From: Takakia lepidozioides
Lineage: Eukaryota; Plantae; Bryophyta
Assembly (NCBI GenBank): GCA_030704615.1
Contig: CM060731.1
Span: 82,522,001 to 82,586,000 of the forward strand
Length of the DNA: 64,000 bases
Direction: 5' to 3'
The notes below the pieces were generated by a model. It was not told the DNA's origin, ran no database searches, and worked only from the letters and a program-made list of their open reading frames with translations. This document shows, piece after piece, positions 1,878 through 49,953 of the stretch (within the stretch, counting starts at the first letter, position 1; each line of letters opens with the position of its first letter). The position numbers and the translations under genes were made by a program.

Positions 1878-2126
1878 TGGGCATGACAATGGTGAGGCGG
1901 ACAAGTGATCCAAGGTCTAGCTAGTGGGGCTTCAATTCCATGGATACTCAACTGAAGATCATGGATTGCATGAAGGCGACTAACGATGGGGCTACGTTTG
2001 CACCCGGCCTCTTGATCTATTGACTTCAGGTGTTGGGACTTGTGCGATTGAAGACCAAACGATGATCTTGGATACTTGCAAGCTATCCGGTGTTAGAGGG
2101 ACCTAATCACCAGCTAGGGGGGCGAT

Positions 2127-2647
2127 TGTGGCGTGGCTTTCTAAGACTATATGCTAGGAAGTGTGGTTGGACAGCGATGTATGTTGTGGCACAATGCTTA
2201 GGTGCACGACAGCTGTCATGGTTTTGTTTGTGATTAGTTAGAAATAGTTATTTCTAGCTAATTAGGACATTGTACATTTATATTTGTATTTTGTTGGCAT
2301 TGGGACTTCATTTGGTTCCATGTGCCAAGTGAGGTGACGAACCTCACTTGGGACGTGGGGAGGTTATCTCCACGTGAGACGTAGGCAGGCTCGTCTTCTT
2401 CTAGTCGAGCCTCCCGAGGCCTCTCTCACCGCCATAGCTCTAGTACTTGAGATGGAGAGTGGGTGAGGTCTGTATGGTGGAGTCCTTTAGCAAAGGTGCC
2501 ATTGGCTTGATTTATATAACGTGATAGAGTGGTTTCTCCTCTTTTCACCATTTCCTTATCATTGTGGCGTGGCTTTCTAGGACTATATGCTATGAAGTGT
2601 GGTTGGACAACGATGTATGTTGTGGCACGATGCTTAGGTGCACGACA
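2127..2647 (+). repeat. Split terminal repeat of copy B: A(85 bp)-GC-B(348 bp)-T-A(85 bp)
   Basis: 2127-2211 and 2563-2647 are near-identical direct repeats (TGTGGCG...CACGACA). Junctions are GACAGCTGTC and TTATCATTGTGGC. Confidence 0.92.
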
Positions 2648-3668
2648 AATACTTGTCAGATAGCTGAATAGTAATTTCAACCCATAAAATGTTACCCTTT
2701 TTCTTCTATCAGTTTATTTAGAGTTTTTTTTTGGTTAGTGAAAACTAATAAAGCAACCCATTGAAGATGGCGCTCCAGAGAGACCCCCAACAGTCTCTTC
2801 GTCTCTCACGATTTCTCCTTCCTTCCTCCGTTTAACAGACTAGATCTTTAACTTCATGGTTATCACCTTATGTGAAACATTCTCCACGGCTATTCTCATA
2901 TGTTCGATGCTATTTTCTCATGATTGCATCATCCTTTCATGATTTATGTCTTTTCTGTGAACTCTTCATCCTTCACCCTTTAATCCCATTCTCGTGCAGG
3001 CGGCGCCCCTACCCACTCCTCTCCTAGGAATGACGGCTAATGAATAGTTTGGCCAGCTGGTTTGTCGCCACTCTTACCTCATGGTTTTCTGACATTTGTC
3101 CCCACTCTCTCCCTCTCTTTTCTTTCTCAGCTAAACTCTTTGCATACTCGTTCCTCGCCTCCTTGCGCTTTCGTTTTGCGTTCTCCTCTCATGTTTGCTG
3201 GTGTTTTGCTTTCAGTACGATCATTTCCTTTCCTCTGCATTATGGGTCATAGCGGATATGTCGGTCTTAGTTCGAAAAAGAGTGCAGGGATTCGTCATCC
3301 CTCCGCCCCTACGCAGACGCAACACATGAGCTTTGTTTCCTCATCGGGTACAGGGTTCTTTCTGGCTCATCAAGCGCTATCGAGGTATGCTGGAGGGGCT
3401 GAAGCAATGAGACACCCACCCCCCAGGCCTTCATCCTCTTATGTCGACACTCCATCCTCTCCCTTGCCCCTTCTTAAAATGCCGAGGCTAGATCCTGCAT
3501 TGTTTGGAGTCCCTCCCCCATCTCCACCAGCTGAAGACTACGTTGAGGAAACAACTACCAAACAGGTAGCTATGAACAAAGACTTCCCACTGGCAGACAT
3601 TAACCTTCCAAATCTCTACAAGAGGGTGGAAAAAATGGAGGAGCATGGTATTTTACTGCATTTTCCAT

Positions 3669-4007
3669 GTCAAGGGATTTAGCAGCATTGCAAAGGCTCT
3701 TACCAAGTTGACCAAGGTGGGTCAGGAGTGGCAATGGGAGGAGGAGCAGGAGGAAGCATTTGAGGAACTCAAGGCTCGATTGACTTCTACACCTATTCTG
3801 AGACGGCCTATTCGGGGACGGCCTTTCCAGCTACATACGGATTGGAGTATGCTGGGGATTGGAGCAGTGTTCACACAAGTGGATGATGAGGGAAGAGAGT
3901 TCGTAGTGGCATATGCTAGCTCCTCGAACAATGATGTCGAGGCGAAGTATAGTTCCTATGAAGGGGAGTGTCTAGCTGCGGTATGGGCAGTGGCACATTT
4001 CAGATGC
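3669..4007 (+). pseudogene. pol: Inverted RT-connection/RNase H fragment of the DNMT-gypsy family
   Basis: VKGFSSIAKALT...FQLHTDWS...YSSYEGECLAAVWAVAHFRC is nearly identical to element A and abuts the RT fragment on the opposite strand. Confidence 0.9.
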
Positions 4008-5430
4008 TAGTTTGCCAATCCCATGAAAGCACGAACTCTGCTCACATCCATGGGGCGTGGAATGCATGCAATGGCCTCTATCTTTGTCTGTTGAACACCC
4101 AATCCTCCAGGGTATATCATGTGGCCCAGATACTCAATTTGATTGTGGAAGAACTTGCACTTTCCGGGGTGCAGTTTCAACCCGTGCGCTCTCAAGCTCT
4201 CAAACACCACCTGAAGGTGTCTCTCATGCTCCTCAACCATAGCACTAAAGATGATGATGTCATCAATGTAGCACCGGGCGAAGTCTAGCCCGGCGAGAAT
4301 CCTATCCATGACCCTCTGAAACTCTGCAGGAGCATTCTTCAACCCAAACGGTAAGAACCGCCATTGGTACAAACAATCCTTCCCATGTTGGTCAATCCCC
4401 TTGAATGTCGTCTTTTGCTTGTCAGCCTCTTTGATTGGCAACTGGTGGTAACCGGATCGCAAGTCCAATGTGCTAAACACCTTTGCATGCCCAATGGCAT
4501 CAAAGATCTCCTCTGGAGTTGGCATGGCATATCTATCGGACTTAGTCTGACGGTTCACAAGGAGATAGTCCCCACACATCCTTCTTTCTGTCCAATTGCC
4601 ATAGATATCCTTCTTAGCTGGCATCACCGTTGCCGAGGCATACTCCCCACCTGACAACTCCACCAATCCAGCTTTGAACAACTCCATAGTCCGTGACTGG
4701 ATCAATGACCTTTCCATGTCACTATACCGGTAGGGCCTTCGAAAGATTGGCGTGTCACTTGCCAAATCAATACAAATCTCTTGACCCTTCAAACTCCCCA
4801 AATCCTTCAATCCGAAGGCAAAACAATTTCTATAAGCCCTTAGAAATCGCCGAATCCTCCGTCTCTCTCCTCCAGTGACTGTAGGTCCAACATCTGGTTC
4901 CCAATTGTCCTCAGTGACTGCAACCTTGGGTACACCGGGCTTGGAGGTAGGAGACGCATCCTTTGGTTGCTAGATAGCAACCTCTTGGGCCTTGTCCGCC
5001 CATCCTGACTGTGGCGTAGCCTCCACTTGCTCCGCCATAGCCACCTTGAGAACATCCTCTGGGGAGGAAACATCTTCAACCTCTTCAAAAACCTTAGCCA
5101 CCTTGGCCTCCAACTGATCCTCAGTGTATGGCTCTCCCCACTCCTCATACTACTGCTCGGGAGATCCAATGACTCTCTCCTTGCGCATCTCATCCCACAT
5201 CTGCCATGGGTGTTTGCACCCCATGATCCTGTGCTCGCCCCCACCCTCCACTGTCCCGGTTGGCAGAGAGGGTGCAATATCCAATGGGAGAGCGAAAATA
5301 GCCACCAATGCTTGCAATCTCCGTTGCTCAGCCATACACAAGCCAATGACCCATGTCAAGCAATTGAGATCCATTGCCTGACCCAACACCTGGCGTCGTG
5401 ATGCCTCTGACAGAGCTGGCACAGCTGTAG
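4008..5430 (-). pseudogene. pol: DNMT C-terminus, linker with in-frame TAG, and RT of the DNMT-gypsy family
   Basis: ORF 5150..5422 carries RRQVLGQAMDLN (DNMT motif X region). TAG-CAA-CCA lies at 4972-4964. ORF 4007..4810 is RT (LPFGLKNAP, YIDD). Confidence 0.92.
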
Positions 5431-7329
5431 TGGGTCAAAGCATGTTCAGGTGTCTCATTTGAGGAACTATTTCAAGGACAACAGCCCTATGTTTGACTAT
5501 CATTAGGGTCATGGGATTATTTTGCGCTTATTTTGCTAGTTTTTTGAAATACGTGTCCATCTGATAATAATGTGGGGTCATGGACATATCGCATACTGCC
5601 ACGTCTACAAATGTCTCCATCATGCAGCCCAAATTTTGGTGCATTGCATGAGGTAGCGGCAATTTTTTCGCGATCCACTGCTACACGACAAAGACAGTGT
5701 GCAATTTTGAAACTGTACTACGCGCATCTTGGCAATAATGTCTTTCTCTCTACTGTGACGACTCCTGTATGGAGTGTGAAACCAGTCAAGTCTCGAGCGC
5801 ATTCTCACGCTCCTTTCTTCACGACAAAGTACTTGAACGTTGTTGTTGTTTCGCTTACAGTTGTTGCATTGGAAAGCATCTGCACACCCCGGTGCATTTT
5901 TGGCTCCAGCACTCTCAACTGTCCATGGTTTGTCTCTCGAGCAGATGTGTGGTGTCTTGATCGCATTCTCACCCGGACCTGGTGTTTACCCCATGCAAAA
6001 AGAGGAATTCAACATGGTTGGCATTTAGGGTTCCATAGAGTCCCTGCATTGTAACTTCTACTTTGGAAATCTTCAGTGCTAATTTTGAGGCTTCACTGTC
6101 AACTCCGCAATCCAGAGGTGGTGTTTGAAACATCTCCACATTGGTCGTACTGAGCGAGCGAAAAGTGAAGTATTCTAACCTACGTATCCCTACACAAGAG
6201 TGGTGGAGACGTTCTCAGTTGTCATGACTGTTTAATGTCCAACCTAGAATGTCAAGAGGTGCGCACTCCATTAGTGAATGGATATTTGCATACTTCTATT
6301 CATTACATAGTGGGTGTGTTTCTCCACCGCAATGTGGATAATCGCAACCACATGCAATACATGTCATTTTGTCTGAGCCCTGAATCTATTATTCATAATC
6401 TATCATAGGGAGGTATGTGAATTGACCCAATTCCCTTCTTCGTGTAACTAAAATGTGTTGCCTACATGCAGGAATCTGCGAGCGATCTTGCATGAAATGA
6501 AAGCAGTGGAACCTAAGATGGAGAAAATTACGGTTCGGTGGGCAGATTCGCTAAGTCAAACACCTATTGTGGATTTTCCTTGCGACAGAGCCATCTGCCT
6601 TGCACCATCTCTATGCGTAACCTATTCCCTACCCGAGACTATCAGGGTCTACAGTTGTCCCAAGCTTTTAGTAATTTGAGTGTCAGCACCCCTTGTTCAA
6701 GTCCCTACTTTGTGCCATCCATGTCCCATTTACTCATTTTGAATGGGAACCCCTTCCGTGGTATTGCATTGATAGCCTCTTGTGGGAGACCTCATTGTGT
6801 TTAAAGTTCCACACATCACTCATCCTTGGGGAGTTAATGTAGTTGAGATGACCCCAGAGATGATGGATGGGACGTTCATGGATTATACTTTGTGCTTGCA
6901 ACAGACGTCATCTCAACTGACCACCTATATTTGCATTGGTGGATGGTGGATTCTTAGTGAGGAATCACATGTCGACATTGTCGAGGTGACTTAGTGCTTT
7001 GAATCGTTTGCACTGTGTTTAGGGTTATCCAGAATTGACAGATTTATTGACGTAGCACCCTGTCATTTTGCTCCCACATTGAGTGCCATGATTACAAAAG
7101 ATTTTCTAATACATATGGTCAATTTTTGTTTGTTGTGCAGGCCCTCAGTTCCTCTGATGTCATCATATGAGCCTGTCTGCCATAGGATTTAGGCGAATCT
7201 CCTGTTTTGTGTAGTCTTTGTGTGGTTGCATGTTGAGGGTATACATTCCCATGAATTTGTAGGTTTCCATTTGTTAGAGCCCTATCTGCAGGTTTTTACT
7301 TAGGGTGATTTTTGTTGCCGCATAGCAGA

Positions 7330-10711: not shown

Positions 10712-12348
10712 TGTTAGAGGGCTGTTTGGGACTTAGACGCTTTTACGGGTTTTGTGGGGTACCATTAATTTTGCGCAGACTTACAGATGGTAGACTTAGG
10801 CCACACAGGTTTAGGGGTGGTAGACAGGCTCACACAGTCAAGTCATGAGTTATCACAGCCCGACACAACCTGTCACAGTCTATCACAGCTTATCACATCC
10901 CGACACAGCTTTGCACAGCCAGTCACAGCCCAACACAGCCCAACGCAGCTTTACACAGCCAGTCACAGCTCGGCACAGTCACAGCCCAACACAGTTTGGC
11001 ACAGCCTGTCACAGCGCACGGAGGGAACGATTATTGTTAGCAGGGAACTACTGTGTGGGAACGACATCTGCAGAAGGAACGTATTACTTCAGGGGTGATA
11101 GTTAGTTAGTTAGGCGGTTGGAACAGCTTGTAGGTAGATTAGGTAGAGCAGCACCAGGGAGGGGATCACTTCACGGGGAGCACTTCTTGGTCATGCATGA
11201 GTGGAGATCAGCCGGAGAGCAAGAACGGGAGCAATGATGGAGAGCACCGTGAAGGAGAAAACATGAACAATAGATGCTTGTTACATGCAAAGCTGTATTG
11301 ATACAATAGGGCAAATTGGAGACACCAATGCATTGGCTTGATACCCGATAAATCATAATCGGATACTTATTCGATACAATAACACTGTGTAGAGAGACAT
11401 GAGTGAAGCTGTGGAATGAATGGATGAGTGAATGGAACCTGGTAGATACTGAAGCAAACTGATGCTTCAGTATACACAGTAAGGTAAATTGCTAACATGA
11501 AGGCAAGAAGAAATACAAATAGGAAGCACAACCATGATTCACTAGCTGTAGGTCATGACTGATTGTTCTGAGCAGGCTGAGTGCTTGGAGATATCCAACT
11601 ATTCTATCTTGGAGTTTCCACCTCGGATAGCAAAGGGATGGGTGAGTAAAAGCCGCTCGACATTTGGCGACCATACTGGGGAACTGGGTCAAGAACAACC
11701 AGATGTGACACGCATCTGGTGGGATCATGGTGGTTGGAGAATTAAAGAATTTGATATGAATCAAATTCCCTGTGGAACTGAGAAAGAAAGGTTGTCCAAG
11801 CAATTCTTTCAGAGATTCTTGGAACTGCTAGACGGTTGCAAAGAAAACATTCTTAAGAGAGTGCATGATGCAGATCCTGAGTAGGGTCTGGAGAAAGGAG
11901 TGATAAAGATTTATCAAGGGGCCTATAGAGGGAGAGCAAGTTGGTTACCAACGTTGGTTTATGTGATAGCGTTGCTATCCATAAAATGAGTGGAGTTAGA
12001 AGGCTGGGAGGAACGGAAAGTGAATGTTTACACTCATATGCATGAAGAGTTGGTACTGGTAAAGAATTAGATTCCTAAGGATATCATGTGGATCAAACTG
12101 ACACCAAGAACAGCTTTTCAGACATGCTTGCCATATGGATATATGGTAACGGAGACCTCTAGTATAGCCAAGGATGCATTGAAGCTTGAAAGAAATCCGG
12201 GCATATACGAGAGATACTACAGGAGAGAGTTTGGTTTATTGCCTCATTAAAGATATGAAAGACATGGGACATGAGTGATGAAAGAGAAGCTAGACTCCAG
12301 AGATATTCAGCAAAAAGAGAGAGTTATCTGAAAGCTAATTATCCATAT
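10712..12348 (+). mobile_element. Ty3/gypsy family D, copy D1: 5' LTR (10712-11662), PBS, decayed extra ORF1 and start of gag, interrupted by D2
   Basis: TG...CA LTR similar to D2 and D3, PBS TGGCGACCATACTGGG, and gag start MSDEREARLQRY cut at 12348. Confidence 0.88.
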
Positions 12349-13930
12349 TGTTAGAGGGCTGCTTGGGACTTAGACGCTTTTACGGGTTCTGTGGGGTACC
12401 CTTAATTTTTGCGCAGACTGAGACCAACAGGAGCCTTAGAGGTGGCAGCAGCAGGCTTTAGGGGGGTTACACAGCCAACACAGCCCGACACAGCCAGTCA
12501 CAGCCCGCCATAGCTTCGCACAGCCCGACACAGCCGACACAGTCCGTCATAGTCAGTCACAGCCCGCCACAGCTTCGCACAGCCGACACATTCCGTCACA
12601 GCCAGTCACAGCCGCCACAGCTTCGCACAGCCCGACACAGCCTTACACAGCCAGTCACAGCTCGGCACAGCTTGACACGCCTGTCACAATATATGGGGAA
12701 CAGTTATCATTGGCAGGGAACGACTGTGAGGGAACGACTGTGAGGGAACGACATCTGCAGAAGGAACGTGTTACTACAGGGATGACGGTTAATTAGTTCG
12801 GTGGTTAGAACAGCTTGCGGGCAGATAAGGGGAGCGGCAACGGAAAGAGGGGACACTTCACGGGGAGCGTTTCTGGGTGATGGGAAGAGGAGATCAGGCG
12901 GAGAGCAAGAACGAGAGGACAAAGAAGGAGAAAAGATGAACAGTAGATGATTATTACATGCAGAGCTGTAGTGATACTGTAGGGCGGATTAGAGTCACCT
13001 TGACATTGGCCTAGTACCTGATAAATCATAATCTGATACTTATTCGATACAAGCACACTGTGTAGAGAGACATGAGGGAAGCTGTGAAATGAATGCATGA
13101 TAAACTGGAACTAAGTAGATATTGAAGCAATCTGATGCTTCAGTATCAGATAAGGTAAATTGATAACATGAAGGCAAGAAGGAATACAAATGGGAAGCAC
13201 AACCATGATTCACTAGCTGCAGGTCATGACTGATTGTACTGAGCGGGCTGAGTGCTTAGAGATATCCAACTCTTCTATCTTGGAGTTTCCACCTCGGATA
13301 GCGAAGGGATGGGTGAGTAAAAGCCGCTCGACATTTGGCGACCATACTGGGGACCTGGGTCATGAACAACCAGATGTGACAGGCATCTGGTGGGATCATG
13401 GTGGTTGGAGAATTAAAGAATTTGATGTGAATCAAATTCCCTGTAAAACTGAGAAGGAAAGATTGTCCAAACAATTCTTTCAGAGGTTCTTGGAATTGCC
13501 AGACGCACATTCTTAAGAGAGTGCATGATGCTGACCCTGAGTGGGGTCTGGAGAAAAGGGTGATAAAGATTTATCAGGTGGCCTGTAGAGGAAGAGCACG
13601 TTGGTTACCAACACTGGTTTATGTGATAGCATTGCTATCCATTAAGCGAGTAGAGTTTGAAGGTTGGGAGGAAAGGAAGGTGAATGTTTATACTCATATG
13701 CATGAAGAGCTTGTACTGGTAAAGAATTGGATTCCAAAGGATATTCTGTGGATCAAACTCACACCAAGAACAACTTTCCAAACTTGTTTGCCATATGGTT
13801 ATATGGTAACGGAGACTTCTAGTATAGCCAAGGGTGCATTGAAGCTTGAAAGAAACCCAGGCATATACGAGAGATACTACAAAAGAGAGTTTTGGTTATT
13901 GCCACATTAAAGAAATGAAAGACATGGGAC

Positions 13931-15372
13931 ATGAGTGATGAAAGAGAAGCTAGACTCCAGAGATATTCAGCAAAAAGAGAAAGTTATCTGAAAGCTAATT
14001 ATCCATATCTTTGGGAGAGAGGAATAGACATAGGGGAATCATCTGGACCTCTCACACCATTAAGATCAGAGAGTACATCACCCATACCGGAAGAACTAGA
14101 GTTGGATGCCACTCCTTCTGTTTCTTTGCAAGAAAGATTAAGGGAATTGGTACAGGAAGAAGATCAACCACGAGGTGAAAGATCTGAGGTACATCCCTGG
14201 ATAAAAGATTTGACAGAAATCTTTGATAAGAGTTGGCATGGAACACCAAAAGAAGGAACTCCAGTTTCTGAAATGGAAGGTGAAGAAGGAGGAGAGGATG
14301 TGGCAGAGCCAACGGAGAGTTCAGACTCTCCAACACCGTTGCAGTTGAGTTACATGAGTGAAGAAGAAACCCAAGGGCAGAACTTGGAGGATGAAATTAG
14401 AGAGAAGAAATTGGAAGAGGAAGAGTATGAAGAAGTAGACCCAACAGCTGAGGTTGAGACTACAATCAGGACATCCCAACCCGTTGGACCTGGATCAAGT
14501 GGAGCACTTGGATCACAGGCCAACGAAGGTGTCGGCACAGGGGGATCAGGCGGGCAGCCTGGATCTGGCTCTGGGGGGACAGGGAGTGTGGGAAGTAGTG
14601 CAACTGGAGCTGGGAATACTTTGAATATCGTGGGGCCAGTAGCAGGGAATGCTCAGGGGCCACCACTTGGAGAATTGGTAGCACAGAACTAACTGATGTA
14701 CTGATAGATGGAGGCTCTGGAGTGAATATCATGACAGACCAATTAAGGCAGAAGCTTGGTCTAAGTAACATGAAGCGAGCCCCATTTACAGTAACAATGG
14801 CAGATCAAAGAAGTGTACAGCCACTGGGATTGATAAGAGGAGTTAAGATACAGATTCAAAAGATGATATTTATGATCACAGTATCTGTGTTAAAAATGGA
14901 TGAAGTCATGGAAGCTTACTCCTTATTGTTGGGACGTCCGTGGCTGAAACAGGCCAAGGTATTCCATGACTGGAATTCCCAGTTACTAATTGTGCATGAT
15001 GGGATGCACAAGATACAAATTACCACTAAGAAATCTAGTAGATTACCTGCTACGAGAAGACCTCGAGGGGTCAGGGAGTATGACTGCAGGGGAGGACTTG
15101 ATGAGGAGCAGGAAGCTACCCTGTTCGCTACACACCCAGAGTGGGAGCAAGTTGCAGAGATGCAGCTGGAAGGCCTAAGTTGTTTAAAAGGTATCTGTTG
15201 TGGTGTAGTGACAGCAACACCAATTGAAGGTGAAACAAGCAATTACCCACCACATTTCTATGAAGAAAGAGAAGGAGAAATGGAAATCCTAGATGAACCA
15301 GCCACTGTGAGTTTACAGGATGAAGTGGTGACTGGTTGGACAATCACAGCTGATGAGCAGGTGAGAGAAGTG
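13931..15372 (+). pseudogene. gag: D2 gag N-terminus fused by deletion to aspartic protease
   Basis: Matches D3 gag up to ~14670, then jumps to TDVLIDGGSGVNIM...LLLGRPWL. Confidence 0.85.
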
Positions 15373-16427
15373 TGTTGCGCGGCTTTTACTCACCCATCCC
15401 TTCGCTATTCGAGGCGGAAACTCCAAGATTGAAGAGTTGGAAATCTCTAAGTACTCAGCCCGCGCAGAACAATTAGTCATGACCTACAGCTAGTGTATCA
15501 TGGGGGTGTTTCCTATTTGTTTCCCTTTTGGTATTCATGTTAACTATCTTACCATTGATAATTAAGTATCAGTTTGCTTTATCAATCTATTGGATTCCAT
15601 CAACTCATCCATTCATTCCACAGCTTCACTCAGATCTCTCTACACAGTGTGATTGTATCGTAAAAGTATCTGATTATGATTTATCAGGTATCAGGCCGAA
15701 GCCATTGTGTCTCTAATCTACTCTACAATATCATTACAGCCTTGCATATATCAAGCATCTACTCATCATCTCTCTATCTTCACTTCCGTTCTTCATCTCT
15801 GCCCGATCCCCTCTCCTCTATCACCAAGAAGTCCTCATCCGAATGATGTCCCTCAATTCCCCGTTTCTCCCTTTATCTTCCTATCCGCGGTTCTAACCGT
15901 TTCCCTCACTAACCATCGTCTGTGAACTAACATGTTCCCTTCGCAGGTGTTGTTCCCCACAGTCGTTCCCTGTCCTACTTTTCGTTCCCTATGATCGTGA
16001 CAGCTGTGTCAAGCTGTGACTGGCTGTGTGAAACTGTGACGGGCTGTGACTGGCTGTGCGACTGTGTTTGGCTGTGTCGGGCTGTGAATGGCTGTGTGGC
16101 TGTGCCGGGCTGTGTCGGCTGTGTCGGCTGTGTCTGCTGTGACGACTGTGACGGCTGTGTTGGCTGTGTCGGCTGTGACGACTGTGACGACTGTGTTGGC
16201 TGTGTCGACTGTGACGGGCTGTGTTGGCTGTGTCGGCTGTGTCTGCTGTGACGACTGTGACGGCTGTGTTGGCTGTGTCGGCTGTGACGACTGTGACGGC
16301 TGTATAACCCCCCTCTACAGTGCGCTGCTGTCACCCCTAAGGCTCTTGTTGGTCTTGGTCTGTGCAAAAATTAAGGGTACCCTACAGATCCCGTATAAGT
16401 GTCTAAGTCCCCGACAGTCCTCTAACA
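15373..16427 (-). repeat. 3' LTR of D3, containing a (CACAGC/GACA)-type short tandem array at ~15998-16303
   Basis: Near-identical to 25190-26272 except for array length. Confidence 0.95.
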
Positions 16428-16458
16428 TTACCCCTTCCCCCCTCAAAAAGCCGTGTCC

Positions 16459-19041
16459 TCACGGTTTACTGATTTCGACTAGCAAACCTTTGTGAGTGAG
16501 CACCTTCTTGACGTTGAGAGTTTCGTGGCGGACTGTGTGTACGAGCCCAGGTCTGTCTCTGGTTGACGGAGATGGTTGATCACTACCTGGATAAGTGAGG
16601 CCCTCTGGAGGCTGATATCGAGGTAACCTTTCCGGCATAGGAGACCCCCGTCGCTTCTTCTCTGCCATCTGAATTGCATAGTCTTCTCCCATGTCAAAAG
16701 AATTCGGTGAAGAAACAGTTGTATCAGAATCCTCATCGCCTCTCAGGTGTTTTAATTTTCGAACTTTTTGTGGAATCATCTGGGGCATACAATGTTGTCC
16801 TACCATGTCTGGAAGTTTGTATTTTACAACTTGGTGTAACCGCTGAACAGCAAAATTGGTGTAGACACTGAGCTCCTTGTCTGTCCAGGTGAGTGGGGTA
16901 CCAATTACTGGTGCAGCGTGCAAGTACTTCCATGCCACATGTCCCTTATAGAAAATGTCATCAATGCCGAATTTCTGTGTTGACAAATGGTTCCAGGCCG
17001 CTTGAAACCATGAACGAATTTGAGAATCCTTTTGCATCATAACTTTTGGGTCATATAGGTACATATGAGGTGGCACCGAAGGTAATACCCAATGATCTCC
17101 ACTGGAATAACTCAGAAAGCGTGTTTGCATCTTTTGTTGCTCAATGTGGTAACGTACCAGAAAACAAGCAGCGTAGTATAGCCCGCACCCCATGACAATA
17201 CTTGCTATCTCCTTGGTCTTGGTATAAATGAGTCCATGTACAACCTGGAAAGCAATCAATTCCCTCAACATGGTACCTGCCTCATGCCAGTATTGTGCAA
17301 AGTGATGATCTTCAATATGTCGATTGTTCGGAAGAACTTTAGTCCTAGTTGCCATTGGCAGCCAAATACGCATGATTTGGTAGTAATGTGCGAATGACTG
17401 CGGAGGACTAAATTCTTTCCAAGCCAAATCCAACATGATGGGAATTTGGTTGAAGGGCATAATCATAGCCCTACTGTACTCCCTTGCAGCTGGAGTTTTA
17501 GGTGGGTTAAAAGCGGCATTGCCCCATACCTCCGGCTGTGGTGGCTGTGGTGTGGTTGTAGTAACCACAGGTTCAGCTACTGGTACAGTGACTTGTTGTG
17601 GTGGTGGTGGTACTGGCTCTTGTATCATTGGCATCTCCTGCACCTCCTGTGAAGACTGAAAAGCCAAAGTTCTGGCTTGTAAATAAGAAGCCATTAGCTG
17701 TTCCTGAGGGATATAGACTCTTTGGTCGATGTTTGAAGTGAGGTCTTCCACTTGAGTCTGGAGTCCGTCTACATCCTCTTGTAACTCTGCTATCCTACTA
17801 TAGACATTGTCTATAGTAGTTGTGGCAATGTTCTGCACCTGCAGCCTGAGCTCATTCATCTCGCTTTGGGTGAGCTTCCGTGGTGCTTTGCCCTCTACTG
17901 GCCCTTGTGTTAACCAGACCTGCATAAGGCTGTTATCCACCAAGTTGCTTGTGGTTCCCCTGAGAGTTTGCTCCTCTCTTAGCTTGTACAATTCCAACTG
18001 CTGTTGTAAAGCCTCCATGCGCTTCGCCTGAGGTTCAACCAATTGCGCATAAGCAGCAAGTAGATTATTGGCTTCCTTCCAAGCCTTGTTATTGACCGTG
18101 ATTTCATTTCTATTGGCCATGATGGTTTGTTGCAACTCCACGATGTGCTTCTCTTGATCAGCTTCAATCTGCCTGTATTGCTTGAAAGTATCTTCATTGC
18201 GACAGATTGTATTCTTCATATCGACAATGAGCTTCATTTGCTCAACATTCTCTTCTTCTGCCTTCGTACATTTTTCCGCTTGACTGTTTATTTCTTTTGT
18301 AGATTGGTCAAGCATAGTTGTAAATGTAGCACATTGTATCGCCATCCTGTTATGCACTGTCTGCAACTCCGTATGTAGTGCATTCAGTTCTTGCAACTTG
18401 CTTTCATGCTGCACCTGCATTTGGTATAGCTGTTGCTTATGTGCTTCGTGCAACTGGTCTTGCGCGAGGCCTGCCTCAATCAATTGTTCCTTGGCCAATT
18501 GCAAAGCCATTTCTGTATTTCCCAAGTCCTGCTTCATCTTGAGAGTGACCTCTTCATCGACCTTGTTTGCACACTCAGTGGCTAGTCGAGCCTCAAACTC
18601 CTTCCTGAGTTCCTCTCTCAAGGCTGTCAATTGGGTAATTGGAACATGGGATTTGACATAAGTCCCCAACAAATTAAGTGTCCTGCCTATGGAACTCATC
18701 AGCATTGCCTGTTGAGGGTCATCATGGTGAGGTTGCTGCTGTTCCTCCTGATCTTCAACAGTGTGATGTCTCACGAACCATTCAGGCCATTGTCCCACCG
18801 GATTTTCTTCCTGAACTACTTCATCTATCACCGGTGCTACAGTGTCATGACCTTCCGCCTGTGGTACCTCCGACACAGGTGTGTGTATTATATGCACCTC
18901 AGGATTTCCCTTGGGCAACTGTTGCACCTCTGGGATCTCTGTCTCCTTGACCAGACCAGAATATTCATAGAGAAGGTCCCCTTTCTCCATTTCTGCCACT
19001 ATCTGTTCTGTAGTTGGAATATCTAACCCTTCACTTTCCAA
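16459..19041 (-). CDS. D3 extra 3' ORF (860 aa; long coiled-coil, Pro-rich linker, unknown C-terminal domain)
   Basis: Uninterrupted ORF between pol and the PPT, with a heptad-like E/Q/K/L-rich stretch at about aa 135-435. Confidence 0.8.
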   Translation of the reverse strand: MESEGLDIPTTEQIVAEMEKGDLLYEYSGLVKETEIPEVQQLPKGNPEVHIIHTPVSEVPQAEGHDTVAPVIDEVVQEENPVGQWPEWFVRHHTVEDQEEQQQPHHDDPQQAMLMSSIGRTLNLLGTYVKSHVPITQLTALREELRKEFEARLATECANKVDEEVTLKMKQDLGNTEMALQLAKEQLIEAGLAQDQLHEAHKQQLYQMQVQHESKLQELNALHTELQTVHNRMAIQCATFTTMLDQSTKEINSQAEKCTKAEEENVEQMKLIVDMKNTICRNEDTFKQYRQIEADQEKHIVELQQTIMANRNEITVNNKAWKEANNLLAAYAQLVEPQAKRMEALQQQLELYKLREEQTLRGTTSNLVDNSLMQVWLTQGPVEGKAPRKLTQSEMNELRLQVQNIATTTIDNVYSRIAELQEDVDGLQTQVEDLTSNIDQRVYIPQEQLMASYLQARTLAFQSSQEVQEMPMIQEPVPPPPQQVTVPVAEPVVTTTTPQPPQPEVWGNAAFNPPKTPAAREYSRAMIMPFNQIPIMLDLAWKEFSPPQSFAHYYQIMRIWLPMATRTKVLPNNRHIEDHHFAQYWHEAGTMLRELIAFQVVHGLIYTKTKEIASIVMGCGLYYAACFLVRYHIEQQKMQTRFLSYSSGDHWVLPSVPPHMYLYDPKVMMQKDSQIRSWFQAAWNHLSTQKFGIDDIFYKGHVAWKYLHAAPVIGTPLTWTDKELSVYTNFAVQRLHQVVKYKLPDMVGQHCMPQMIPQKVRKLKHLRGDEDSDTTVSSPNSFDMGEDYAIQMAEKKRRGSPMPERLPRYQPPEGLTYPGSDQPSPSTRDRPGLVHTVRHETLNVKKVLTHKGLLVEISKP

Positions 19042-19253
19042 ATCAATTATTTCGGTTGAGCTGCATGGATAACTTGTGACCTTGTGACAAGTCGATCAGC
19101 TGGCTGTGGTGGTTGTGATACAGAAGTAACTTCCTCCTCCCTCTCTGAAGGTCCTGCTTCCAGTAATAGCATTCTCTGTGCTGTGTGCCCCTTCCTGACC
19201 ATGAGCTTGGGAAACATTATCATGCGGAATCCGTGAAGCCAGTGGATCCGCCA

Positions 19254-22200
19254 CTACAGTCTTTCCCCGTCTCTGCCTCTTAGTCTCGGTTGCCCTGCTA
19301 GTCCACCCTCACTGTGTGAAGAGCCTTGCTCTTCCATTGCAGTTGTTTCTGGCTCAAACACTCCCATTTCCTTCCTTTCTTGTGCATCAAGTATGCCAGA
19401 ATCAAGGATTATTTGAGCAATGATTGGGCCAGACACTATGATAGGAGACTTTGCGGTAGTACCTTGTAATCTTTTCATCTCCTCTACCAGTGCGTTGTAC
19501 ATTATGTCCGCCCATTGTACCTCTTGTCCCTTCAGGCCTTTGAGTATTTCCTCCGTGAAGGATCTGCTCAAATACTGTTGGTTCTGTTTCATGGCAATCA
19601 GAACGTTCAATACCTGGCCTACCTCTTTTAACCCTGGGTACACAGCCTTGGTACAAGCATAACCCTGAGTTTTAAAGAAACTCCCTTCTTGGAATAAGTC
19701 CCATATTTGCAGTCTTGCCCTGTGTTCCTCCACATGCACCTGACCTGCTGGCAATCGAAACAATTGCTGGAGGTATAGGGGAGTAATCATTAATTCAACT
19801 CCCTTCACCGTTGTTGTTCCTGTCCTTGGCTCAAAGTTCTGCAAAAATTGTAACATGTACTGTCTATGGTGTAGTGTCCAATCTAGGCTTTGCAATCCTT
19901 GCAATCTCAGCTCCTCCAGTATCTGTATCGCCTGTGGGGTAGCAATCGTTTGTTTCTGCAGAATTGTGGTGCTCTTCACCCTGATTTCCTCCATTCCTCT
20001 CACTCTCTTCATTTTAGACTCACAGAACTGTTTTGGCTGTAACAACTGCAGGAATGCCTGTAGTGCACAAAGCATAAACGTATGGTTGCCGCAGAAAGCT
20101 ATGGGTAATTTCTTGTAAGCCTGCGGGGCTTGCAAGCATCGCTCAAGAGAAAAGCTCTGCTCTGTCCTTTCGTGTCTATGCCACTGCGTAAGTAATATTG
20201 CGAGCGTATAGTCTGTTAGTTCCTCCATAGTTTCCAAGGTATAGCATTGATGGTCTGTCCTGTCGAGACGCCCGTTACTCAGAACGACGCCGCCTCTTGC
20301 GCTCAATTTCCCTCCATTTTCTTGATCCTTTCTCTGGTTTTCTATTGGCTGTATCCGCTGTGACTGGATTTTAGATTTTATCTTCTTTAGTGGACTTTCC
20401 CTGTTGGATAGTCCACTAGGATCACACATGTGACAAGAATTCCGCTTTTCTGTACTTGCCGTTCGTTCCGTTTCCCTTTTTCCGTACTCATTAATGGGCC
20501 CGCCTTTCATCCCTTTTGACGGCCGTTCTTGTCCTCTTTCTTTTTGACACCTGTTCTTGCACTTCCTTCTCGGCTGTGTGTCGCGCCCTGACCTCCACGT
20601 GTCTATTTTTAAAGTAATTTCCGTTTCCTCTTCCGTCAGCCATTTTCCTGAAGTTATTATGCGTCCACTTGTCACTGATTCTATGGATCGTGTAACTTTA
20701 GTAGGCTGTGTTGAGCTGTGACAGGCTGTGTCATACTGTGTTACGCTGTGATAGGCTGTGATGCACTGTGGTAAGCTGTGATAGGCTGTGACACGCTGTG
20801 GTAGGTTGTGATAGGCTGTGTTGCGCCGTGCTGGGCTGTGATAGGCTGTGTCACGTTGTGATGGGCTGTGATAGGCTGTGTCACGTCGTGATGGGCTGTG
20901 ATAGGCTGTGCTTTGCCTTGATGGGCTGTGATAGGATGTGTTACGTTTGTTTTGCCCACCCTGGTCATATATGCTGGGCCTAGCGACAAGTGCTCCATAC
21001 TCCGTTCGTAACACTGGTGCAGCCCGTGACTGCTCTTGCGGTTCAACATGCAAATCATGCTGCAAGGGTTTGTCATGGATACCACTGTACCCCTTCAACT
21101 TATTTGCATTGACTCTTCCCAGCATTTCTTTGTTAATGGTTTGTAACATGGCGGTGTTGTTATCATACATCTTTTGTATGACATAAGGTCCTTTCCACGG
21201 TGATTTAAGCTTAGAAGCTTGAATCTTTTCTTTCTTCTGCAACCATAGAACCAAATCCCCCGTCTTAAAAGTTTTTAACTTGCCTTCATCAAACTGTTCC
21301 TTTCGCTTCATCTGAATTCTGGTCATATTATCAGCTGCATCAGCACGTACTTCTTCCACATGGTATAATTCATGTTTCCTGACCTTGATGGAGTCTTGCA
21401 ATTCCATTCTTTTTCCCCACTCCGTTCTCATGGTAGGTAACAGGAATTCCACTGGAAGTAAGGCTTCCATACCATAAACTAATTGGAATGGTGTATACTT
21501 AGTGGTGACTTTATATGAAGTCCTGTATGACCACAAAGCTGTCAGCAGCTTTGTATCCCAATCCGTTCTGTTTGCATTGACTATCTTAGCCAAGATATTA
21601 CATAGTATTTTGTTGGTAGCCTCTGCCTGCCCATTACCCTGTGGGTAATATGTTGTACTCTTTCTATGCACAATCATAAACTCTTTAGTCAACAACTCAA
21701 TGGTCGCATTCATGAAGTGACTTCCTTGATCACTGATAAATTCTAAGGGACAGCCAAATCGTGTAAGTATGTTCTCGTACAGGAACCTTGCTGTGGACTT
21801 GGCTGTGTTGTCCCTCAAAGCTTTAGCTTCCACCCACTTTGTAGTATAATCAGTGGTTGTAATTATGTACCTGTTTCGTGTATTATTGGATGGTGGGTTA
21901 ATTGGTCCAACAAAGTCTAGTCCCCATTTCTGAAATGGTTCTGTAGGCATTGTAGGATGCAAGGCCATCCTTCCAGATCTCTGCAAAGGTCCTAGCCTCT
22001 GACATTCATCACACTTCTGACAATACTCGTATACATCTTTGAACAAAGTAGGCCACCAGTATCCTGCGAGTAGTATCTTTCTACTGGTAGTCTCTTCTCC
22101 AAAATGACCTCCAGCCACTCCTTTATGAACTTCCGCCAAAACTTTATTTACTTCATGGTGGTACAAGCATCGTTTTAGTACTCCATCAGGTCCTAACTTA

Positions 22201-23360
22201 TACATTCTGCTTCCTACCATAGTATAAGGTAAAGCTTTGATAGCGATTCTCTTCCTCTGCTCCTTACCATAACTAGGTGGGTACTGACCATGAGCAAGGT
22301 AGTATCTGATTGGCCACTGCCAATCTAACCAGTCATCTGCACTTCCCTGCACCTCCACTGCAAAGAGACTCGCATCTGGTAATTGATCATCTATTCCTGT
22401 GGCTGGTTCTCCTGTTGACAATCGTGACAAATGATCCGCCACAAGATGCAGTCTCTCAGGCTTGTAAACAACCTCAAACTCAAACTCGTGCAAGATTATC
22501 AAACATCTTGCTATTCTTCCGCTTATCAGAGGTTTGTTTACCAGGTATATCAGAGCCTGGTGATCCACATAGAACATAAACTTCTTGCCCAACAGGTAAT
22601 GCCTGAATTTCTTCACTGCATAGATCATTGCCAATGCTTCTCTTTCCGTTGTGCTATAGTTCCTCTCAGCACTGTTCATCAACCGGCTAGCATAGTACAC
22701 AGGTGAATCTATATTCCCTGTAACATTCTGGGCTAACACCGCTCCCAACGCTTCTCGTGATGCATCGCAGTGAACATGGAATACTACATGCCAGTGAGGG
22801 TTAATCAGCACAGGTGTAGTTGTTACTGACAGTGTAAGTTCCTCAAATGCCTGTTGACATTCAGCTGTCCAGGCAAACACTGCATCTTTCTTCAGTAGTT
22901 TGCTCAATGGTGCTGCTATTTGTGCATACCTTTTGACAAATCTCCTGTAATAACTGGTTTGCCCAAGGAATCTCCGTAGACTTTTAACATTCACTGGTGG
23001 TGGAGAGGCTTTAATGGACTCTGTCTTTCTGGGATCCACAAGGAGTCCCTTCTTACACACAATATGTCCCAGAAGCACCCCTGAGTTCACACAGAAAGTA
23101 CACTTCTCTGGATTCAGGCCCAGACCTCTCATCCTGCATCTGGCCAAACATAACTCCAATTTATGCAAGTGCTCACTCTTAGAGCTGTACACACTGAAAT
23201 CATCCAAGAATACCTGCATGAAATCATCCAGATACTCATGAAAAGATTCACTTATCACTCTCTGAAAGGTCGCTGGTGCATTACAAAGTCCAAAGGGCAT
23301 GACTTTGTATGCATAAGCCCCCCAGTCTGTGATGAAAGCTGTTTTCCACTCACAAACCAA
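19254..23360 (-). CDS. pol: D3 pol (C-half of RT, RNase H, integrase) with long C-terminal extension
   Basis: MPFGLCNAP, FLDD, CDAS, EREALA, H..GHFG...C..C, LDFVGP, SDQGSHF, PQGNGQAE and PWKGPY motifs, then 7-aa repeats and a ~300-aa extra domain. Confidence 0.93.
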   Translation of the reverse strand: MVCEWKTAFITDWGAYAYKVMPFGLCNAPATFQRVISESFHEYLDDFMQVFLDDFSVYSSKSEHLHKLELCLARCRMRGLGLNPEKCTFCVNSGVLLGHIVCKKGLLVDPRKTESIKASPPPVNVKSLRRFLGQTSYYRRFVKRYAQIAAPLSKLLKKDAVFAWTAECQQAFEELTLSVTTTPVLINPHWHVVFHVHCDASREALGAVLAQNVTGNIDSPVYYASRLMNSAERNYSTTEREALAMIYAVKKFRHYLLGKKFMFYVDHQALIYLVNKPLISGRIARCLIILHEFEFEVVYKPERLHLVADHLSRLSTGEPATGIDDQLPDASLFAVEVQGSADDWLDWQWPIRYYLAHGQYPPSYGKEQRKRIAIKALPYTMVGSRMYKLGPDGVLKRCLYHHEVNKVLAEVHKGVAGGHFGEETTSRKILLAGYWWPTLFKDVYEYCQKCDECQRLGPLQRSGRMALHPTMPTEPFQKWGLDFVGPINPPSNNTRNRYIITTTDYTTKWVEAKALRDNTAKSTARFLYENILTRFGCPLEFISDQGSHFMNATIELLTKEFMIVHRKSTTYYPQGNGQAEATNKILCNILAKIVNANRTDWDTKLLTALWSYRTSYKVTTKYTPFQLVYGMEALLPVEFLLPTMRTEWGKRMELQDSIKVRKHELYHVEEVRADAADNMTRIQMKRKEQFDEGKLKTFKTGDLVLWLQKKEKIQASKLKSPWKGPYVIQKMYDNNTAMLQTINKEMLGRVNANKLKGYSGIHDKPLQHDLHVEPQEQSRAAPVLRTEYGALVARPSIYDQGGQNKRNTSYHSPSRQSTAYHSPSRRDTAYHSPSQRDTAYHSPARRNTAYHNLPQRVTAYHSLPQCITAYHSVTQYDTACHSSTQPTKVTRSIESVTSGRIITSGKWLTEEETEITLKIDTWRSGRDTQPRRKCKNRCQKERGQERPSKGMKGGPINEYGKRETERTASTEKRNSCHMCDPSGLSNRESPLKKIKSKIQSQRIQPIENQRKDQENGGKLSARGGVVLSNGRLDRTDHQCYTLETMEELTDYTLAILLTQWHRHERTEQSFSLERCLQAPQAYKKLPIAFCGNHTFMLCALQAFLQLLQPKQFCESKMKRVRGMEEIRVKSTTILQKQTIATPQAIQILEELRLQGLQSLDWTLHHRQYMLQFLQNFEPRTGTTTVKGVELMITPLYLQQLFRLPAGQVHVEEHRARLQIWDLFQEGSFFKTQGYACTKAVYPGLKEVGQVLNVLIAMKQNQQYLSRSFTEEILKGLKGQEVQWADIMYNALVEEMKRLQGTTAKSPIIVSGPIIAQIILDSGILDAQERKEMGVFEPETTAMEEQGSSHSEGGLAGQPRLRGRDGERL
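20703..20940. repeat. 21-bp tandem repeat inside D3 pol, encoding TAYHSPS-like heptads
   Basis: About 10 units containing GGCTGTGATAGGCTGTG. Confidence 0.85.
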
Positions 23361-24580
23361 GTCTTCTGTAAACCGGGCGCTGGTACTGCAGCCAGCTTTT
23401 TCATCATCAATTCCATCTTCTCCATATACTCTTCAAAAGTTTCATGCTTCTTCTGCTTCAGCTGTTGTAAACTTCCATACACTTCATCCTCAGTTTTACT
23501 TGTCCTGAACCTATTTCGAAATGCTGTATTCAAGCCATTCCAGGTTAGGAAATGATTATCAGGGAATCTTGCATACCATTCACTTGCTTTCTTGATAAGT
23601 GAACAAGGAAACAGTCTCATCTTGGCATCATCGCCATTCTCATTGTTCACTATACACATGTGCTCAAATTGGCTAATGTGTACATCGGGATCCCCTTTTC
23701 CTGAATATATTGGAAAGGGTGGTTTTGCCCGTGTTGGTTGTAACGCCATCTGTGGCCCTACCTTCTGCGCACTGACAGGTGCTGGCACCCTTGCTGGTGC
23801 TGGTCCTTCTGGACCTGTTGTTTTTGTGGTGGATCTTCCACCAAGTGGTGGCCCTTGAGCACTCCTTGCTTCTGGCCCCACGATATTCACAGTATTCCCA
23901 GCTTCAGTTGCACTACTTCCCACACTCCCTGTCCCCCCAGAGCCAGATCCAGGCAGCCCGCCTGATCCCCCTGAGCCGACACCTTCGTTGGCCTGTGATC
24001 CAAGTGCTCCACTTGATCCAGGTCCAACGGGTTGGGATGTCCTGGTTGTAGTCTCAACCTCAGCTGTTGGGTCTACTTCTTCATATTCTTCCTCTTCTAA
24101 TTTCTTCTCTCTTTTTTCATCCTCCAAGTTCTGCCCTTGGGTTTCTTCTTCACTCATGTAACTCAACTGTAATGGTGTTGGAGAGTCTGAACTCTCCGTT
24201 GGCTTTGCCACATCCTCTTCTCCTTCTTCACCTTCTGCTTCAGAAACTGGAGTTCCTGCTTTTGGTGTTTCATGCCAACTCTTATCAAAGATTTCTGTCA
24301 AGTCTTTTATCCAAGGATGTACCTCAGATCTTTCACCTCGTGATTGATCTTCTTCCTGTACCAATTCCCTTAATATTTCTTGCAAAGAAACAGAAGGAGT
24401 GGCATCCAACTCTAGTTCTTCCGGTATAGGTGATGCACTCTTTGATCTTAATGGTGTGAGAGGTCCAGATGATTCCCCTATGTCTATTCCTCTCTCCCAA
24501 AGATATGGATAATTAGCTTTCAGATAGCTTTCTCTTTTTGCTGAATATCTCTGTCGTCTAGCTTCTCTTTCATCACTCAT
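23255..24580 (-). CDS. gag: D3 gag (capsid domain; C-terminus deleted)
   Basis: YSGKGDPDVHISQFE...RLFPCSL..ASEWY...TWNGLNTAFRNRF...LKQKKHETFEEY retrotransposon-gag signature. Confidence 0.88.
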   Translation of the reverse strand: MSDEREARRQRYSAKRESYLKANYPYLWERGIDIGESSGPLTPLRSKSASPIPEELELDATPSVSLQEILRELVQEEDQSRGERSEVHPWIKDLTEIFDKSWHETPKAGTPVSEAEGEEGEEDVAKPTESSDSPTPLQLSYMSEEETQGQNLEDEKREKKLEEEEYEEVDPTAEVETTTRTSQPVGPGSSGALGSQANEGVGSGGSGGLPGSGSGGTGSVGSSATEAGNTVNIVGPEARSAQGPPLGGRSTTKTTGPEGPAPARVPAPVSAQKVGPQMALQPTRAKPPFPIYSGKGDPDVHISQFEHMCIVNNENGDDAKMRLFPCSLIKKASEWYARFPDNHFLTWNGLNTAFRNRFRTSKTEDEVYGSLQQLKQKKHETFEEYMEKMELMMKKLAAVPAPGLQKTWFVSGKQLSSQTGGLMHTKSCPLDFVMHQRPFRE

Positions 24581-24601
24581 GTCCCATGTCTTTCATTTCT
24601 T

Positions 24602-25297
24602 TTAATGTGGCAATAACCAAAACTCTCTTCTGTAATATCTCTCATATATGCCTGGGTTTCTTTCAAGCTTCAATGCACCCTTGGCTATACTTGAAGTCTC
24701 CGTTACCATATAACCATATGGCAAACAAGTCTGAAAAGCTGTTCTTGGTGTGAGTTTGATCCACAAAATATCCTTTGGAATTTAATTCTTTACCAGTACA
24801 AGCTCTTCATGCATATGAGTATAAACATTCACCTTTCTTTCTTCCCAGCCTTCAAACTCTACTCGTTTAATGGATAGCAATGCTATCACATAAACCAATG
24901 TTGGTAACCAACGTGCTCTTCCTCTACAGGCTACCTGATAAATCTTTATCACCCTTTTCTCCAGACCCCATTCTGGATCAGCATCATGCACTCGTTTAAG
25001 AATATTTTCTTTACAACCGTCTGGCAATTCCAAGAACCTTTGAAAGAATCGTTTGGACAATCTTTCTTCCTTCGTTCCACAGGGAATTTGATTCACTTCA
25101 AATTCTTTAATGGTCCAACCACCATGATCCCACCATATGCCTGTCACATCTGGTTGTTCATGTCCCAGGTCCCCAGTATGGTCGCCAAATGTCGCGCGGC
25201 TTTTACTCACCCATCCCTTCGCTATTCGAGGCGGAAACTCCAAGATTGAAGAGTTGGAAATCTCTAAGTACTCAGCCCGCGCAGAACAATCAGTCAT
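24602..25297 (-). pseudogene. Family D extra ORF1 upstream of gag (~230 aa; one internal stop in this copy)
   Basis: Conserved in D1 (11555-12250), D2 (13226-13910) and D3. It starts inside the LTR and reads through the PBS. Confidence 0.75.
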
Positions 25298-26272
25298 GAC
25301 CTACAGCTAGTGTATCATGGGGGTGTTTCCTATTTGTTTCCCTTTTGATATTCATGTTAACTATCTTACCATTGATAATTAAGTATCAGTTTGCTTTATC
25401 AATCTATTGGATTCCATCAACTCATCCATTCATTCCACAGCTTCACTCAGATCTCTCTACACAGTGTGATTGTATCGTAAAAGTATCCGATTATGATTTA
25501 TCAGGTATCAGGCCGAAGCCATTGTGTCTCTAATCTACTCTACAATATCATTACAGCCTTGCATATATCAAGCATCTACTCATCATCTCTCTATCTTCAC
25601 TTCCGTTCTTCATCTCTGCCCGATCCCCTCTCCTCTATCACCAAGAAGTCCTCCTCCGAATGATGTCCCTCAATTCCCCGTTTCTCCCTTTATCTTCCTA
25701 TCCGCGGTTCTAACCGTTTCCCTCACTAACCGTCGTCTGTGAACTAACATGTTCCCTTCGTAGGTGTTGTTCCCCACAGTCGTTCCCTGTCCTACTTTTC
25801 GTTCCCTATGATCGTGACAGCTGTGTCAAGCTGTAACTGGCTGTGTGAAACTGTGACGGGCTGTGACTGGCTGTGCGACTGTGTTTGGTTGTGTCGGGCT
25901 GTGACTGGCTGTGTGGCTGTGCCGGGCTGTGTCGGCTGTGTCGGCTGTGTCTGCTGTGACGACTGTGACGGCTGTGTCGGCTGTGACGACTGTGTTGGCT
26001 GTGTCGACTGTGACGGGCTGTGTTGGCTGTGTCGGCTGTGTCTGCTGTGACGACTGTGACGGCTGTGTGGGCTGTGTCGGCTGTGACGACTGTGTTGGCT
26101 GTGTCGACTGTGACGGGCTGTGTTGGCTGTGTCGGCTGTGACGGCTGTGTAACCCCCCTCTACAGTGCGCTGCTGTCACCCCTAAGGCTCCTGTTGGTCT
26201 TGGTCTGTGCAAAAATTAAGGGTACCCTACAGATCCCGTATAAGTGTCTAAGTCCCCAACAGTCCTCTAACA
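25190..26272 (-). repeat. 5' LTR of D3
   Basis: TGTTAGAGG...GCGCGACA followed by TT and PBS TGGCGACC (tRNA-Arg-like 3' end, by recall). Confidence 0.95.
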
Positions 26273-26277
26273 AAGTG

Positions 26278-34174: not shown

Positions 34175-34674
34175 NNNNNNNNNNNNNNNNNNNNNNNNNN
34201 NNNNNNNNNNNNNNNNNNNNNNNNNNNNNNNNNNNNNNNNNNNNNNNNNNNNNNNNNNNNNNNNNNNNNNNNNNNNNNNNNNNNNNNNNNNNNNNNNNNN
34301 NNNNNNNNNNNNNNNNNNNNNNNNNNNNNNNNNNNNNNNNNNNNNNNNNNNNNNNNNNNNNNNNNNNNNNNNNNNNNNNNNNNNNNNNNNNNNNNNNNNN
34401 NNNNNNNNNNNNNNNNNNNNNNNNNNNNNNNNNNNNNNNNNNNNNNNNNNNNNNNNNNNNNNNNNNNNNNNNNNNNNNNNNNNNNNNNNNNNNNNNNNNN
34501 NNNNNNNNNNNNNNNNNNNNNNNNNNNNNNNNNNNNNNNNNNNNNNNNNNNNNNNNNNNNNNNNNNNNNNNNNNNNNNNNNNNNNNNNNNNNNNNNNNNN
34601 NNNNNNNNNNNNNNNNNNNNNNNNNNNNNNNNNNNNNNNNNNNNNNNNNNNNNNNNNNNNNNNNNNNNNNNNNN
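34175..34674. other. Assembly gap (500 N)
   Basis: Run of exactly 500 n. Confidence 1.
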
Positions 34675-39357: not shown

Positions 39358-39358
39358 A

Positions 39359-39372
39359 TCGCCCCCCTAGCT
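39359..39372 (-). promoter_or_regulatory. Polypurine tract of element A
   Basis: AGCTAGGGGGGCGA on the minus strand, followed by T and TGTGGCAG. The identical motif is at 2112-2125. Confidence 0.85.
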
Positions 39373-49941: not shown

Positions 49942-49953
49942 ATCTCTCTCGAG
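49942..49953 (-). promoter_or_regulatory. Non-tRNA (self-priming) primer-binding site of element A
   Basis: CTCGAGAGAGAT abuts the 5' repeat and is perfectly complementary to 50145-50156 inside that repeat. Confidence 0.8.

Follow-up and report, generated by a model that had tools for sequence, protein, structure and literature searches.

A widespread variant of Ty3/gypsy retrotransposon was found whose anatomy points to integration from a palindrome located inside its long terminal repeat (LTR). The window analysed, a 64,000-nucleotide stretch of Takakia lepidozioides contig CM060731.1, contains a full-length member (element A) and the remnant of a second member (copy B). Both end in the permuted order A-GC-B-A, where A and B are the first and second parts of the LTR as reverse transcription would build it. 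The DDE integrase of these elements very probably uses the palindrome at the A/B join rather than the ends of the cDNA.

Copy B is a dead 1.65-kb fragment from the 3′ end of a Ty3/gypsy retrotransposon that has decayed. Its homology to element A begins only at position 995, positions 1-990 being other DNA. The original prediction had its 5′ end absent from the window; the copy is cut off inside the window at approximately 995. A decayed integrase core, a PHD finger and a 3′ untranslated remnant (995-2111, + strand) were recognised by homology to element A, with 79% nucleotide identity over 995-2126; the C5 DNA methyltransferase region is no longer present. The end that follows had been predicted to read PPT-T-A(85)-GC-B-T-A(85) over 2112-2647, and this order was borne out, with a B of 348 nt. 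On the + strand it consists of the PPT, a putative plus-strand primer site (2112-2125) with the same letters in element A, T 2126 and A1 (2127-2211, 85 nt), the GC spacer between A1 and B (2212-2213), B (2214-2561), T 2562 and A2 (2563-2647, 85 nt), with the insertion boundary at 2647. The palindrome GACA-GC-TGTC, a putative integrase attachment site, spans the A/B join at 2208-2217 (strand not applicable). The B/A join (2561/2562, + strand) would represent a joined pair of cDNA ends, and a self-primer segment in B (2393-2404, + strand) is complementary over 12 bp to the PBS of the copy-B subfamily. A1 and A2 match at 81 of 85 positions (repeat BLAST, E = 2.65e-33).

Contigs of other copies of this subfamily share these boundaries. 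Consistent with the predicted B-only start, sequence other than A precedes B's first base (2214) in three contigs, which are not full-length copies (X6 record 24, one X5 contig and X2 record 8). The PBS follows 2561 in contigs of X1 and X6, and diverse sequence follows A's end (2647) in 40 contigs. Just downstream of copy B, at 3668-5431, lie rearranged reverse transcriptase/RNase H pieces that also belong to this family; one is in direct and the other in inverted orientation, and they meet at approximately 4008.

Element A (38829-50310, - strand; 11,482 nt) has the full order B1-PBS-internal-PPT-T-A1-GC-B2-T-A2. Its 5′ end, B1 (49954-50310, - strand), is without A and includes a self-primer segment (50156-50145; B 155-166); the adjoining PBS (49942-49953, - strand) is a perfect 12-bp complement of a stretch within B1. 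The 3′ end (38829-39372, - strand) comprises the PPT (39372-39359), T, A1 (39357-39273), GC, B2 (39270-38915), T and A2 (38913-38829). A1 and A2 are identical (85/85), and B1 and B2 match at 356 of 357 positions. The element is flanked by the target site duplication (TSD) GCCC (right copy 38825-38828, left copy 50314-50311, - strand), which was confirmed by a homologous empty site (57649-57646) that holds a single GCCC. Element A is nested in a repeat of another gypsy element (50311-58046), the second copy of that repeat being the empty site. A further gypsy family (10712-14670 and 15373-28905), with tandem arrays of 9-10 nt units in its repeats and with adjacent and inverted copies, has a 10-nt array within the pol frame as well (20702-20945). 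An assembly gap of 500 N (34175-34674) touches neither element A nor copy B.

The coding region of element A (39619-46384, - strand) was resolved with Pfam into four frame pieces, which encode gag, protease with a C5 DNA methyltransferase, reverse transcriptase-RNase H, and the end of RNase H followed by integrase and a PHD finger. The gag and protease matches were weak, below the curated cut-off; the integrase matched rve (E = 4e-14) and the methyltransferase PF00145 (E = 7e-13), with a tblastn match to the latter in 17 of 20 long loci. The order gag-protease-reverse transcriptase-RNase H-integrase, with a DDE integrase, is that of Ty3/gypsy elements, and TG...CA ends with a short TSD were found in all seven full-length copies. 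In place of two complete LTRs bounded by PBS and PPT, there was B only at the 5′ end and A-GC-B-A or A at the 3′ end. The second D and the E of the integrase (39619-41481) are 34 residues apart in element A and in 114 of 120 relatives (P0001-P0120), compared with 35 in another gypsy element of the window; this spacing marks the clade and may bear on the unusual substrate. Named relatives, at 43-52% identity, came from Klebsormidium, Chlamydomonas (a relative there being CHLRE_09g398141), Tetrabaena, Pleodorina, Haematococcus and Monoraphidium.

The integrase cores of copy B and element A were 92% identical over 110 columns and formed sister rows in a tree consulted for sister status and broad grouping alone, 22 of its 46 inner branches being open. 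The A parts were identical at 59 of 89 aligned columns and the B parts at 214 of 393, in agreement with the prediction that B is largely different between the two. Both junction words, CACGACAGCTGTCA (2205-2218) and TTATCATTGTGGC (2556-2568), occur exactly twice in the window, once in copy B and once in element A. The predicted identity of the junctions therefore held for the two words themselves, but the first T of the second word is private to copy B; at 2556, the contigs from four runs all have G, so that only 12 of the 13 letters are common to the subfamily.

In a metagenome scan for integrase loci, the best 80 of 530 confirmed loci were sorted by their 3′ ends. A-B-A ends were found at 20 of these 80 loci, representing 14 distinct insertions plus two second elements in flanks; a single A was found at 17 (16 distinct), A-GC-B joined to inverted pol at two (one insertion), and the palindrome or a variant of it, with no second A in view, at 12; the 3′ end was uninformative at 29. 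When the two copies in the window were included, these loci gave 18 distinct A-B-A ends in four families, all with a G run before A. One contig (L161), a young copy like element A, carries A-B-A in a fifth family; its join was left unscored, the B end of that family being unknown. The 16 further distinct insertions, together with the L161 contig, uphold the claim that the permutation of this end is conserved as a trait of the family. The claim of a common 85-bp A applied to both subfamilies in the window but not beyond them, A measuring 85, about 96, about 114 or about 180 nt according to family, with a range of about 96-184 nt outside the window. This length and the letters of the B/A junction are conserved only between the window's two sister subfamilies.

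A misassembly, or a single tandem duplication or recombination event, could in principle generate such an end, given that short repeats can collapse during assembly. Two loci (L083 and L160) in which A-GC-B is followed by the PBS are probably collapses of this kind, the L160 contig being closed on itself. However, the A-B-A ends represent 18 distinct insertions from several sources, with TSDs and an empty site; the same insertions recur on separate contigs (for example, L119/L120/L123), and A1 and A2 are approximately 8% diverged in old copies. These observations refute an artefactual or one-off origin of A-B-A, as had been predicted, and leave such an origin scarcely credible.

Full-length members beginning with A would have refuted the permuted arrangement; none was found. 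The 5′ ends of seven distinct full-length copies (element A, L081, L092, L096, L120, L138 and L144) all read flank-B-PBS. The 4-bp TSDs of these seven copies were exact in four (GCCC, TACA, AAGG and ATCA) and matched at three of four letters in the other three. Inserted copies begin with TGTCA and end with GACA, and so terminate at the two halves of the palindrome. No solo B-A element was present in 744,714 bases of loci. A scan of viral contigs for the 14-letter junction returned 78 loci, none with a reverse transcriptase or integrase, and these matches were rejected as chance; protein scans of the viral contigs gave no loci and one weak locus. Seven contigs assigned to prokaryote genome bins (L160-L166) carry this eukaryotic element, and bin contamination is likely. 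Terminal overlaps of 123-127 nt in L155 and L160 would fit either one-LTR circles or collapsed assemblies.

The A/B join and the B/A join were altered to significantly different extents (Fisher p = 0.008). A 2-nt spacer was present at the A/B join in all 18 A-B-A ends, where the only changes were substitutions, mostly of the methyl-C-decay type. The B/A join, judged by visual comparison with each family's own B end and A start, was precise in 11 of 18 ends and altered in the other seven: four had one or two extra letters matching the PPT end or the PBS start, two had deletions of 5 nt and of about 160 nt (L138), and one had an insertion copying nearby B sequence (L097). The palindrome GACA-GC-TGTC also follows the PPT in nine distant loci, and its arms extend and covary (L134 and L117). 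On this evidence, the invariant part of the permuted end is the palindrome at the A/B join. By comparison, two families have A starts without TG, and one has a B that ends in TTG, which suggests that the predicted cDNA ends, not being TG/CA, are not attachment sites.

Where those cDNA ends would lie follows from the priming sites. The PBS adjoins B and is complementary to an internal stretch of it; this pairing covaries across five families, its letters varying by family while the pairing is retained. The paired stretch measured 12 bp in element A and in the copy-B subfamily, 16 bp in L092, 11 bp in L096, 14 bp in L120, 11 bp in L144, 13 bp in L160 and 16 bp in L083. The duplex energy of the element A PBS was reached by none of 200 shuffles; that of L096 was not significant (23 of 200 shuffles). 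Pairing failed in two of seven 5′ B copies tested, L081, in which B is 15 nt shorter, and L142; L117 and L163 yielded no candidate. Priming is likely to be Tf1-like self-priming, with the minus strand started at B's last base. The PBS would thus place the right cDNA end at B's last base and the PPT the left end at A's first base, so that the LTR made by reverse transcriptase would be A-GC-B and inserted copies are likely to start and stop in mid-LTR.

These features can be combined into a putative pathway. The RNA would prime itself by pairing of the PBS with the stretch inside B, as the covariation suggests, and minus-strand DNA would extend from B's last base. The PPT, judging from its position, would prime the plus strand at A's first base, giving (A-GC-B)-internal-(A-GC-B). 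B's end and A's start would then be end-joined, most likely in a two-LTR circle before insertion, and the integrase would cut the left A/GC/B palindrome, lose the GC and insert the two halves. Joined ends and an opened left palindrome yield B-internal-A-GC-B-A letter for letter, with the GC lost and a variable B/A join; a one-LTR circle, or cuts at both palindromes, would yield B-internal-A. We lean, by a little more than an even chance, towards this sequence of events, in which the cDNA ends are joined into a circle that the integrase opens inside the LTR. It is consistent with the B start, A end and TSDs of all seven full-length copies, with an invariant A/B spacer (18/18) beside altered B/A joins (7/18), and with a DDE integrase in an element that has no tyrosine recombinase match. 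The PBS pairing, the palindrome in distant loci and the cDNA ends that are not TG/CA fit equally, as do single-A ends that are 16 in number when distinct and about as diverged as A-B-A ends. There is a precedent in HIV-1 integrase, which is reported to cut the palindromic LTR junction internally (PMC1905944). However, this pathway is read from inserted copies alone, 29 of the best 80 of 530 loci are uninformative at the 3′ end, and its priming step meets the failed pairing in L081 and L142 and the lack of a candidate in L117 and L163. The A-GC-B-PBS arrangement of L083 and L160, in turn, may be assembly collapse. Moreover, the two palindromes of each two-LTR circle predict a mirror form, B-A-B-internal-A, which was seen at none of the seven 5′ ends.

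A possible but distinctly less probable sequence of events does without the circle. Here the integrase would cut the left palindrome of linear cDNA and insert B's start together with a short piece of A, leaving a chromosomal break between the end of B2 and the start of A2; end-joining would then produce A-B-A and annealing of A1 with A2 would produce a single A. One step would cover the altered B/A joins (7/18), the high share of single-A ends (16 compared with 13 A-B-A ends in the two best-sampled families, among the best 80 of 530 loci) and the unusual end of L127 and L128. In L127 (3985-6515), and likewise in L128, an inverted piece of the element's own pol replaces A2 after A-GC-B, so that B's end behaves like a free end. 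Against this, a chromosome would have to be broken at every insertion, and the absent mirror form is predicted here too; inserted copies cannot separate this course from prior circle formation.

The 11 precise B/A joins also fit a jump of the polymerase. In that case, reverse transcriptase would make the B/A join end-to-end and copy on through A with no need of host end-joining, and the palindrome halves would be the ends used by integrase. Four further joins are off by only one or two letters, and several families show one-letter or short overlaps there; the absent mirror form could also be explained if the jump took place on one side only. The deletion of about 160 nt in L138 and the copied-B insertion in L097 instead resemble host repair, and the right end would still need a cut at the palindrome, which makes a polymerase jump improbable.

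Single-A copies, for which prior circle formation and a chromosomal break offer different origins, account for roughly one in two 3′ ends among related families. L081 is a full-length copy of this form with the exact TSD TACA, and L096 is internally deleted with a TSD matching at three of four letters; L142 and L159 were left out of the count, A being incomplete or the PPT decayed. Pairwise identities were 87-90% for single-A copies compared with 89-91% for A-B-A copies. Collapse of two A parts in assembly is unlikely, because the single-A copies are as old as A-B-A copies, in which A1 and A2 differ by approximately 8%. They could stem from later A1/A2 recombination. One X2 contig (record 2) runs from the last letters of the PPT through A into other sequence, with too few bridging letters to establish a single-A copy in the window's organism. 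B-internal-A copies have no terminal repeat and lack a 3′ B, and are predicted to be dead on arrival. In L104 (1805-1928), an inverted B piece follows a single A, a product of self-insertion or of insertion into a relative.

If prior circle formation is correct, two-LTR circles would give rise to live copies and one-LTR circles to dead copies. The accepted view is that both LTR elements and retroviruses use the ends of linear cDNA for integration, with circles regarded as dead ends or a minor reserve (PMC4372172, in the portion consulted). Any family restricted to insertion by way of an internal palindrome would be a permanent exception to this view. Such a family would offer a natural case of circle integration, a DDE counterpart of PAT/Ngaro, and a simple test system of one 10-bp site and one integrase. 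In its broadest form, a proposition that we hold to be evenly balanced, a green-lineage clade extending from chlorophyte algae via Klebsormidium to land-plant-like hosts has abandoned its cDNA ends; the DD(34)E integrase would cut the internal palindrome, with circles as obligatory precursors. Since recombinase-type elements have the same layout, these elements may also serve as a model for the origin of split direct repeats. LTR finders that need two full LTRs would presumably miss or mis-bound these abundant elements.

As far as the partly accessible sources extend, the layout has been noted once in print, and the attachment site, priming mode, uneven join precision and single-A form were not found there. 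KnitGypsy-Dnmt3 of Klebsormidium nitens combines Gypsy domains with a C5 methyltransferase located within Pol (de Mendoza et al. 2018, PMC5890265), and the legend of Fig. 4c of that paper describes its repeats as ordered as in DIRS elements. Element A resembles it in both respects, the methyltransferase in Pol and the DIRS-like split repeats. The protease-methyltransferase of element A is 35% identical to Klebsormidium KFL_009030040 over 580 columns, and its integrase is 52% identical to a Klebsormidium protein. In the tree, P0104, tested for a clade with the Klebsormidium element, belonged to this broad group too, but its branch is long and leaves from a fork that is open. The consulted parts of PMC5890265 contain no junction, TSD, priming mode or mechanism, and the word "circular" occurs there 0 times; that account does not extend to chlorophyte-type elements, the palindrome or the single-A form. 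The name KnitGypsy-Dnmt3 appeared in no other paper in the literature searched. The consulted part of a 2026 preprint (10.64898/2026.05.21.726589) mentions streptophyte Gypsy-DNMT3 only for the enzyme, and that of PMC8557442 contains nothing on the split-repeat layout. An account of the mechanism was likewise not found in the literature searched, which excludes most subscription papers and Repbase.

Split direct repeats otherwise mark recombinase elements, according to the portion of PMC4157794 consulted. PAT, Toc, Ngaro and Viper have one 5′ repeat and Y-X-Y at the 3′ end, as here, but encode a tyrosine recombinase, whereas the present element is characterised by a DDE integrase, PPT, PBS and 4-bp TSDs. 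Given the repeat layout shared with PAT, Ngaro and Viper, a circle might be inserted by a tyrosine recombinase supplied from elsewhere, with the split repeats inherited through RNA. We consider this very unlikely: none of 47 element A frames of at least 70 aa gave a Pfam match to a tyrosine recombinase (E 0.05), the DDE integrase frame is intact, the 4-bp TSDs vary in sequence and the central GC is lost.

Insertion by the DDE integrase also sets the element beside other integrase-encoding families. As in Tf1, Sushi and Tcn1, the PBS is complementary to the upstream repeat and not to a tRNA (PMC6317226 and PMC4600332, in part); those elements have ordinary paired LTRs, and Tcn1 a chromodomain, whereas the present element has a permuted LTR and an integrase frame that closes with a PHD finger. 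According to the REXdb entries as available, Chlamyvir has a 5-bp TSD, a tRNA PBS and a chromodomain, in contrast to the 4-bp TSD, self-complementary PBS and PHD finger found here. Phygy is given there a 4-bp NCGN TSD and a tRNA-Trp PBS; none of the four exact TSDs found here is NCGN, and the PBS pairs with B. In mechanism, there would be a likeness to retroviral two-LTR circles, which can feed integration, and whose palindromic junction HIV-1 integrase can cut internally (PMC1905944 and PMC4372172, in the parts consulted). In retroviruses that palindrome is the join of the cDNA ends and the reaction is a side path, whereas in the present elements the palindrome lies inside the LTR, at a distance from that join, and its cutting by a DDE integrase is apparently the sole route.
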